Shown piece after piece: positions 9,891 to 24,224 of a stretch of 24,456 nt of DNA. The notes under the pieces were generated by a model. The model was given only the letters and a program-made list of their open reading frames with translations. It was not told the origin of the DNA and made no database searches. The position numbers and the translations under genes were made by a program. Source of the DNA: an uncultured Candidatus Saccharibacteria bacterium (GTDB lineage Bacteria > Patescibacteriota > Minisyncoccia > Phycocordibacterales > CAIJYI01); NCBI GenBank assembly GCA_964601555.1, contig CAZRNX010000001.1, positions 1-24,456 on the forward strand, given 5' to 3'. Position 1 is the stretch's first letter. The number at the start of each line of letters is the position of its first letter.

Positions 9891-9899
9891 GCAACATAA

Positions 9900-10079
9900 G
9901 GGCTCTTCCGAAAATAACTCCCCCATCTCGCCTCCAAATTTTCCCAATCTCCGACTTTTCTTCCGTCAAAAATCTTTCACTGCAGCTGCTGCTGCACCTC
10001 AAGATTTTTTCAGTCAGAAAAAATCGAATCTTAGAAAAATTTGAAACCGAATCTGGAGAAGTTATTTTCGGAAGAGCCC
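9900..10079. mobile_element. MITE-like 180-bp non-autonomous element
   Basis: Perfect 20-bp terminal inverted repeats GGGCTCTTCCGAAAATAACT (9900-9919) and its reverse complement (10060-10079); TAA on both flanks (9897-9899, 10080-10082); no ORF with a recognisable product inside. Confidence 0.7.
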
Positions 10080-10089
10080 TAAGTCGTTG

Positions 10090-22297: not shown

Positions 22298-22355
22298 CAA
22301 CCAGCATTTGGAGACTTTTTTTGCTCCAAAACAAACTACAGGCTATACTGTCTCC

Positions 22356-24224
22356 ATGTCTAATTTCTCTTTTGGGAAAGAAATGCCGGGTCATGTTCTG
22401 AAAGAGCTTGCGGAATATCCAGAGTTCCTGCGCGCGCTTCTCTTTCACCGAGATATTACAACTCGCGAGAAAGCAGAGAAGTTTCTCCATCCGTCGTACG
22501 AGCGCGACTCGAACGATCCGTTTCTGATGCACGACATGAAAAAAGCGGCAGAGCGAATCGTACGCGCGATTGAGGGGAGAGAGAAAATAGTGATTTTCGG
22601 CGATTATGACTGCGACGGCATCCCCGGCTCGGTGGTGCTCCATGACTTTTTCAAAAAAATAGGCTACACGAACTTCTCAAACTACATTCCCCATAGGCAC
22701 AACGAAGGGTACGGCTTGAATATCAAAGCGCTTGAAAACTTTACCCGAGACGGCGTGAATCTTGTTGTGACCGTTGATTGCGGCATTGTTGATTTCGAAC
22801 AAGCTCTCACGGCACGAGAACTTGGGCTTGACTTGATTATCACCGATCATCACTTGCCGGGAGAGAAAATCCCCAATGCTTTTGCTGTTGTAAATCCGAA
22901 ACTTTTATCTGCCGATGAGACAGATGGGGAAGAATATCCCGACTCGATGCTCTGCGGCGCAGGAGTAGCGTTTAAGTTGGTGCAGGCCCTTTTGGAAACA
23001 AGTACTATAGCCGGAGCGAAAAATATTTTTCCTGAAACCTCTTCCCCCCCAAATTCGCTACACGAATTTGGCCGCGCCCCCGCCCCGGTTTCAGCAAAAA
23101 CATTTTCCGCTCCGGCAAACCGTTCTTTTCGCGAAGCGTTTAATATTCCTCCCGGCTGGGAGAAGTGGCTCCTCGATATGGCGGGACTCTCTACTGTCGC
23201 TGACATGGTGCCGCTTCAGAACGAGAATAGGATGATTGCCTATTATGGACTGAAGGTTCTACGCAAAAGCCAGCGCATTGGGCTCAAGAAACTTCTGGAG
23301 AAAATGCGCATACAGCAGGAGAATCTCACAGAAGACGACATCGGCTTCATGATCGCGCCGCGGATTAATACAGCGTCTCGAATGGATATTCCTATGCGCG
23401 CATTTGAACTTCTCTCGACGGCTGATGAAAAGAAGGCGGACGCACTCGCAATGCATTTACATACGCTCAATGATCAGCGCAAGGGGGTGGTTGCATTGAT
23501 GGTGAAAGAAGCGAAACACACGCTTACGAACCGCGAGGTAGGGGAAGTGATCGTGACCGGGAATCCCAAGTGGTCGCCCGGACTCCTTGGCCTTGCCGCA
23601 AGCGCGATAGTGGAGAATTTCCACCGTCCCGCTTTTGTCTGGGGCAAGGATGAGGAAGGAAAAATCAAGGGCTCATGCCGCTCGGATGGTTCGGTTTCTG
23701 TCGTGGAACTCATGTCGCGCAGTAAAGAGTATTTCATACAATACGGCGGACACGAAGCATCGGGAGGATTCATGGTGTCGTATGAACACATTCACATTCT
23801 TGAAGAAAGACTTTCTCTTGTATACAAAGAGATGGGGGGGAAGAAAGAAAAGAAAGGAAGTGAAGAGATTTTCATAGATGCGAAACTCTCTCTTGATGAC
23901 GTGAATTGGGAGAATTACAAAATGATAGAGAGCCTGTCGCCATTCGGGCAAGGTAACCCGAAGCCGGTGTTTCTGTTTGAAAATATAAAAATAGAGAGCG
24001 TACGCGAATTCGGCAAAACCGGCACGCATCTCGAGCTCGTTTTCAAAAATTCAAAAAATATTCCCGTGAAAGCAGTCGCGTTTTTTAAAGCAAACGGCAA
24101 GAAAGATACAGAAGGGGAGAGACACTTCGCGCCCGGCGACACGCTAACTCTCGCCGTATCAATAGAGAAAGATAATTTTAAGAGATATCCGGAGCTGCGG
24201 TTACGGGTGATTGAAATTACATAA
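22356..24224 (+). CDS. recJ: Single-stranded-DNA-specific exonuclease RecJ
   Basis: DHH motifs FGDYDCDG, VTVDCG, ITDHH, TVADMVPL, APRINTASR, GSCR, GGH. Start set to the ATG at 22356, 6 nt after TTGCTC-N17-TATACT. Confidence 0.95.
   Translation: MSNFSFGKEMPGHVLKELAEYPEFLRALLFHRDITTREKAEKFLHPSYERDSNDPFLMHDMKKAAERIVRAIEGREKIVIFGDYDCDGIPGSVVLHDFFKKIGYTNFSNYIPHRHNEGYGLNIKALENFTRDGVNLVVTVDCGIVDFEQALTARELGLDLIITDHHLPGEKIPNAFAVVNPKLLSADETDGEEYPDSMLCGAGVAFKLVQALLETSTIAGAKNIFPETSSPPNSLHEFGRAPAPVSAKTFSAPANRSFREAFNIPPGWEKWLLDMAGLSTVADMVPLQNENRMIAYYGLKVLRKSQRIGLKKLLEKMRIQQENLTEDDIGFMIAPRINTASRMDIPMRAFELLSTADEKKADALAMHLHTLNDQRKGVVALMVKEAKHTLTNREVGEVIVTGNPKWSPGLLGLAASAIVENFHRPAFVWGKDEEGKIKGSCRSDGSVSVVELMSRSKEYFIQYGGHEASGGFMVSYEHIHILEERLSLVYKEMGGKKEKKGSEEIFIDAKLSLDDVNWENYKMIESLSPFGQGNPKPVFLFENIKIESVREFGKTGTHLELVFKNSKNIPVKAVAFFKANGKKDTEGERHFAPGDTLTLAVSIEKDNFKRYPELRLRVIEIT
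23010..23116 (+). repeat. 107-bp palindromic element in-frame within recJ
   Basis: 30-bp arms matching at 27/30 (23010-23039 and 23087-23116); internal hairpin CCAAATTCG/CGAATTTGG. Confidence 0.85.

Follow-up and report, generated by a model that had tools for sequence, protein, structure and literature searches.

The stretch of DNA analyzed here (the window) covers 24,456 nt of contig C1 from an uncultured Candidatus Saccharibacteria bacterium (Patescibacteriota). Its genome, G000, is a MAG of 774 kb in 129 contigs; the copy numbers given below for repeats are therefore lower bounds. The window carries recJ (22356..24224, + strand), whose product has the DHH, DHHA1, and RecJ_OB domains (Pfam). 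The reading frame is open from a TTG at 22308, giving an ORF of 638 codons (22308-24224), and the 622-aa form on record starts at the ATG at 22356.

Within this ORF, and in frame with it, lies an inserted hairpin element of 108 bases (23010..23117, + strand). It supplies 36 codons, residues 235-270 of the 638-aa translation, which sit between the GVAFKLVQALL helix and WLLDMAGLSTVAD. Its two arms (23010-23039 and 23087-23116) are 30 nt each, spaced 47 nt apart, and complementary at 27 of 30 positions (90%). The outermost 9 nt on the left (23010..23018, +) are the perfect complement of the outermost 9 nt on the right (23108..23116, +), and their sequence is not common to the other copies of the element described below. 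All three mismatches fall further in, where an A/T-rich left segment that is conserved among the copies (23019..23039, +) faces the right inner arm (23087..23107, +). The conserved core (23040..23086, +) encodes SPPNSLHEFGRAPAP and consists of a C-rich internal loop, an apical hairpin, and a second C-rich loop. In the MFE fold, the apical hairpin (23049-23071) has a 9-bp stem and a 5-nt loop, with the C-rich runs unpaired on either side.

Folded as RNA, positions 23000-23125 reach -48.1 kcal/mol, compared with -20.8 +/- 2.8 kcal/mol for 200 dinucleotide shuffles (z = -9.76), none of which attained the native fold energy. The original prediction had described a palindrome at 23010-23116 with 30-bp arms matching at 27 of 30 positions and a central 9-bp hairpin, read as an in-frame insert of about 36 codons after GVAFKLVQALL. 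Arm pairing and fold (z = -9.8) bear out the palindrome in every detail, and translation returns exactly the residues that had been quoted. Host sequence starting 16 nt downstream of the insert (23132..23152, +), which encodes REAFNIPP and is conserved in relatives, is similar to the left end of the element, as a direct repeat matching at 15 of 21 positions. At a second copy, in comEC, the flanking host sequence shows a comparable likeness to the left end of its own element; these likenesses may reflect a target preference or chance.

The insert in the RecJ protein

We searched for RecJ in 40 relatives. In most of the genomes with a match, the protein aligns to the query as two pieces, residues 1 to ~230 and ~277 to 637, which lie only a few bases apart in the relative. 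In 27 of 29 related RecJ proteins, the linker between the GVAFKL helix and GWEKWLLD is about 7 to 20 residues long in the alignment, compared with ~50 here, and in the solved RecJ structure (PDB 8y30), 7 residues face 59 of the query. The element has thus entered the DHH domain of RecJ at a variable linker, which joins the GVAFKL helix to the one that follows (WLLDMAGLSTVADMVPL), in agreement with the expectation that this linker is short in typical RecJ proteins.

The two exceptions in the orthologue alignment are a contig break and another hairpin repeat. In G001, a sister species of the same genus, the recJ contig starts right at the insertion site. It opens there with a small hairpin (L014:1-40, the start of G001:C90), and no sequence for the N-terminal part of RecJ, about half of the gene, was found in G001; a repeat at this site probably broke the assembly. 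In G011, a distant relative from a different family of the same order, recJ has an insert of ~30 residues at the same linker (L013:2570-2679). At the DNA level this insert, too, is a hairpin; it has no sequence relationship to ours and is present as a repeat in at least 15 copies in G011, so the RecJ loop has been colonized twice, independently. A loop of equal length without DNA symmetry was found in none of these relatives.

An AlphaFold model of the protein, with 25 orthologues in the input, has a mean pLDDT of 85.6 and a pTM of 0.85. Residues 243-269 of the model have a pLDDT below 50 and no secondary structure, and lie between helices 217-230 and 284-298. The insert thus looks like a disordered surface loop of 36 residues, rich in Pro, Ser, and Ala, within an otherwise confident RecJ model. 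All 77 columns that are invariant across 26 RecJ sequences are kept, including D99, D101, D103, D157, and D180-H181-H182 of the DxD, D, and DHH motifs. The recJ gene looks functional, with the nuclease fold predicted to be intact along with the conserved residues, and the insert is presumably translated with it. The orthologue alignment and structure prediction, together with the genome search described next, support the initial reading of an in-frame element in a tolerant loop.

A repeat family and its superfamily

BLAST and an nhmmer profile reveal three further copies of the element in G000. The recJ segment is therefore a member of a repeat family, here called family A, and not a private loop. 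One copy lies in comEC (C10:13848-13956, sense) and one in comM, which encodes a Mg-chelatase-like ATPase (C2:14331-14435, sense); both host genes were identified with Pfam. The fourth copy (C10:8812-8919) is intergenic and takes up most of the space between two divergent genes, one for an M50 peptidase and the other rpmB. Family members are about 100-108 bp long. The cores in comEC and comM agree at 73 of 76 positions (96%); identity to the others is ~75% for the copy in recJ and for the intergenic one. As had been proposed, the recJ sequence is unlike the inserts noted in carA and carB.

Family A is confined to one species in our data. Its core pattern occurs in a single genome of the 401 from the order, G000 itself; an exact-pattern scan for the core in the genome_contigs, metagenome_contigs, and viral_contigs collections gave 0 matches; and among 5.8 billion clusters of a large protein database, no other protein shares the insert. 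Most of the copies may also lie close together. The gene comEC lies 0.7-3 kb downstream of recJ in five relatives, and in G000 the two genes sit at contig ends, recJ on C1 and comEC on C10. A stretch of ~8 kb thus probably holds three of the four copies, with the adjacency of C1 and C10 judged from synteny; a search for the join by sequence overlap or homology to G001 found no overlap.

Family A shares sub-terminal modules with a second group of repeats, family C: …TTTC-C-TTCCTCGC-TCT…CCC on the left and …CGCC-CTCGTCA-GAAAA… on the right. Searching G000 with a joint profile yields 19 matches at E < 1e-4, a few of which are the two halves of copies split by another element. The family C motif has 13 occurrences in G000, six in G001, and one in G004, and counts elsewhere are at the level of controls; one viral contig matches an 18-mer of the motif, with the rest of the element absent, which is at chance level. 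On these shared modules, we place family A as a branch of a larger, genus-level hairpin superfamily, a membership that goes beyond what had been seen from the window. Small elements of another kind occur in G000 as well. A 180-bp MITE with perfect 19- to 20-bp ends (window 9899-10080) is nested in family C copies at C6:1490-1780 and C29:889-1215, and thus more than one kind of small element is mobile in this genome.

The genic hosts of the superfamily in G000 are RecJ, ComEC, ComM, UvrC (C39:1710-1797), the large subunit of exonuclease VII (xseA, C20:9532-9599), BacA, and Fmt; those elsewhere are an HhH-GPD glycosylase in G001 and a radical-SAM protein in G004. The exonuclease VII large subunit (L077:240-1817, - strand, on C20 of G000) has an N-terminal HRDC domain before the OB fold, an unusual fusion, and the hairpin copy lies in the linker after HRDC. 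The glycosylase linker holds a family C copy in G001 (L072:1480-1600) and an unrelated, GC-rich, multi-hairpin insert in G000 (C108:1509-1673). Five of the seven G000 hosts are DNA-processing genes (recJ, comEC, comM, uvrC, and xseA), the other two being bacA and fmt. The probability of this by chance is ~2e-4, or ~1e-3 if recJ and comEC are counted once, assuming that such genes make up ~10% of coding length and with a class that was defined after looking. We treat the excess of DNA-repair and DNA-uptake hosts as a lead only.

All nine coding copies of the superfamily are sense-oriented, and eight of the nine share one reading frame, the exception being the glycosylase copy in G001. Within family A, the recJ, comEC, and comM copies lie on the same strand and are read in one frame as the peptide …SPPNS-x-H/Y-EFGRA…. 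In these copies, stop codons are absent from two forward frames and two reverse ones. The recurrent use of one frame when others are open, and the conservation of the peptide across RecJ, ComEC, and ComM, could be taken to mean that selection acts on the protein, with a portable module (NF-S-S-x-L-P-P ... FGRAP) serving as a common interaction or localization motif of its hosts. We consider this very improbable. The peptide is no more conserved than the DNA, one member of family A and many of the superfamily lie between genes, and one copy in G001 uses a different frame. Structure prediction leaves the insert disordered, at very low confidence, and the peptide is found in no other protein.

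Insertion junctions and the origin of the stems

The sister species G001 has no copies in comM or comEC, and family A has therefore spread recently. It also lacks the copies in uvrC, bacA, and fmt, where the linkers are too diverged between the two genomes for junctions to be read at base level. At comM, where the G000 and G001 proteins are 82-84% identical, the junction is exact: 99 nt (33 codons) stand between host GAAGAGGG and TAAAAAA. No target-site duplication was found at this junction or at recJ. The comM insert ends in 6 nt that are reverse-complementary to the 6 host nt directly to its left, and a second arm is missing from the empty site in G001. The comM copy thus did not land in a pre-existing hairpin. 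Insertion into such hairpins, for example, into terminator loops, would suit intergenic copies with A-runs and T-runs beside their stems, and is ruled out at comM.

Such a stable hairpin with well-defined ends (-48 kcal/mol at recJ) might also never reach the protein, if it were removed from the mRNA or bypassed by the ribosome, in the manner of hairpin-shaped intervening sequences or some mitochondrial translational hops. This is extremely unlikely. The genic copies are all free of stop codons and in frame, and the length of the exactly measured one is a multiple of three, none of which would be needed if the insert were skipped. Furthermore, no ribozyme or intron family in Rfam matches the element, and no matching take-off and landing codons were seen at its ends. 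Translation of the insert as part of RecJ is the reading that we keep.

The stems of the four family A copies are specific to each copy, yet they pair. Their perfect outer runs are 9, 11, 13, and 10 bp long and differ in sequence, and from one copy to another the arms agree at 38-72% of positions, even for the pair with 96% identity in the core. The arms were compared by script, because a MAFFT alignment of the four DNA sequences was out of register at the 3' end. The same holds for an orthologous family C copy that lies between convergent genes in both species (G000 C50:679-789; G001:C91, L074 ~1255-1355). Here, the core is kept, the flanking DNA is ~66-72% identical, and the stems are entirely different, with full compensation. 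The stems of this pair are flanked by an A-run and a T-run, and with its convergent neighbors, the copy looks like a bidirectional terminator built around the element. In fmt, the right arm aligns at the protein level with host residues of G001.

On the sense strand, G-U pairs (13) are about as frequent as A-C mismatches (11), and in each of 15 copies the antisense strand gives the better fold. Stem pairing is therefore a property of the DNA, symmetric between the strands, and strand-specific RNA structure is ruled out. The sense orientation of the genic copies may simply be the orientation with the weaker mRNA structure.

These counts also bear on whether the hairpin is a functional signal and not a selfish element. 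It could act as a site in DNA (for uptake, recombination, or a protein that binds a cruciform) or as an mRNA element that coregulates genes for genome maintenance and competence, in which case the recJ copy would be under selection. In keeping with this, conservation is higher in the core than in the stems and flanks of the orthologous family C copy of G000 and G001, most of the hosts process DNA (including the glycosylase that carries the one coding copy of G001), and every coding copy is sense-oriented. However, the superfamily has only ~20 copies per genome, family A occurs in one species, and the sister species has no copies in the same genes. The strand symmetry of the stems leaves no sign of strand-specific RNA selection, and Rfam offers no match. 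The bias in gene class was noticed after the fact, and as recJ and comEC are neighbors, their two hits are not independent. We thus regard a functional signal as unlikely and prefer a mobile repeat.

As to how such a repeat could arise, family A would spread by copying of its conserved core, and the outermost stem pairs would be made or perfected locally by intrastrand template switching, with one flank copied into the other arm. The outer stems would then be partly host-derived, because template switching copies the flank into the opposite arm. Template-switch mutations are known to make quasi-palindromes perfect or to extend the identity of their arms (PMC7202029, PMC3820800). Being length-neutral, the process is also frame-preserving. 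It is the best available mechanism for the stems, and we put it forward tentatively, as something short of probable, from two loci (6 nt at comM and the protein-level match at fmt) in variable linkers.

A broader picture can be sketched, which we consider rather doubtful. The elements would be self-perfecting palindromes whose core spreads and whose every copy grows its stem from the host flank, keeping length and frame. They would prefer genes of DNA repair and uptake (RecJ, ComEC, ComM, UvrC, ExoVII, and the glycosylase), either because such genes tolerate them or because weakened hairpin-processing nucleases help them to persist. Together with the hit in G011, this would make in-frame colonization by hairpins general in the CPR.

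Relation to known elements

Palindromic repeats lying in frame within housekeeping genes have been regarded as peculiar to Rickettsia. The segment in recJ is very probably one copy of a small, non-autonomous hairpin repeat that is specific to its species, inserted in frame, and similar in kind to the Rickettsia palindromic elements (RPEs). RPEs were described in frame within housekeeping genes by Ogata et al. (2000, 2002), as summarized in PMC10969869. According to that text, RPEs are palindromic DNA of ~100-150 bp that forms a long hairpin, as does the recJ element with its 30-nt arms and 9-bp apical stem (z = -9.8). They occur in several copies, some in unrelated ORFs and some intergenic (PMC10969869), which matches recJ, comEC, comM, and the one intergenic copy. 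Genic RPEs are in frame and read as one conserved peptide (PMC10969869), as in three of three genic copies of family A and eight of nine in the superfamily. They are absent from orthologues and occupy sites where fold and function are preserved (PMC10969869); the recJ insert is likewise absent from orthologues, and the model predicts a preserved fold. Both RPEs, in the same account, and family A are without a transposase or classical target duplication (PMC10969869).

Family A differs from RPEs in its phylum (Patescibacteria/CPR), in its fewer copies (4 in family A and ~20 in the superfamily), and in its conserved core with copy-specific, perfectly paired, apparently partly host-derived outer stems. 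Homology to RPE-1 through RPE-10 is not expected across phyla and for a core limited to a single species. The likeness is one of operational features.

Bacterial MITEs with in-frame intragenic copies, such as ERIC, BOX, and QMITE1 of Coxiella, are also small, non-autonomous, hairpin-forming, and multi-copy, with occasional translational fusions (PMC10969869, PMC5896051). Classical MITEs, however, end in fixed terminal inverted repeats, are bordered by direct target-site duplications, and can be traced to a recognizable parent IS; none of these was found for family A. Transposase genes in G000 amount to one IS200-type Y1 gene and two DDE_Tnp_1 matches, with no TnpB. The Y1 (HUH) gene (C22:4733-5128, - strand, 131 codons) adjoins a tRNA gene and looks like an ordinary IS200 tnpA. 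An nhmmer search found no copy of the hairpin families beside it on C22. Neither a parent IS with matching ends (at the Y1 locus) nor a target-site duplication (at recJ and comM) was found, and so no transposase, duplication, or parent element at these places links family A to a known transposition mechanism.

REP/REPIN-RAYT systems also consist of hairpin repeats, often between convergent genes (PMC3733652), and a Y1 transposase gene is present in G000. Yet REPs are 20-40 bp long, extragenic, and marked by a GTAG/CGTC tag (PMC3733652), in contrast to the 100-108 bp of family A, which is mostly genic and has no such tag. A RAYT gene is flanked by REPs, whereas the Y1 gene of G000 has no flanking repeat copy. 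Template switching at quasi-palindromes is a mutational process and not an element; it could explain the stems, but not the spread of the core (PMC7202029, PMC3820800). Searches of Rfam 15 with the element and the superfamily copies, at gathering and permissive thresholds, returned only chance matches to miRNA hairpins, far below threshold. We found no paper that describes such elements in Patescibacteria.

Family A is thus a new family of RPE-like, in-frame hairpin repeats in a new phylum. The RPE phenomenon extends to an ultra-small genome of the Patescibacteria: several families are present, two congeneric species differ in their insertions, and the RecJ loop has been hit independently in two different lineages. 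These findings point to hairpin repeats as a recurrent origin of new loops in the proteins of reduced genomes. The inserts make proteins longer, interrupt MAG assemblies (as, probably, at recJ in G001), and can pass for lineage-specific domains. Their copy-specific, apparently partly host-derived stems also provide a natural setting in which to study how template switching mutates palindromes.
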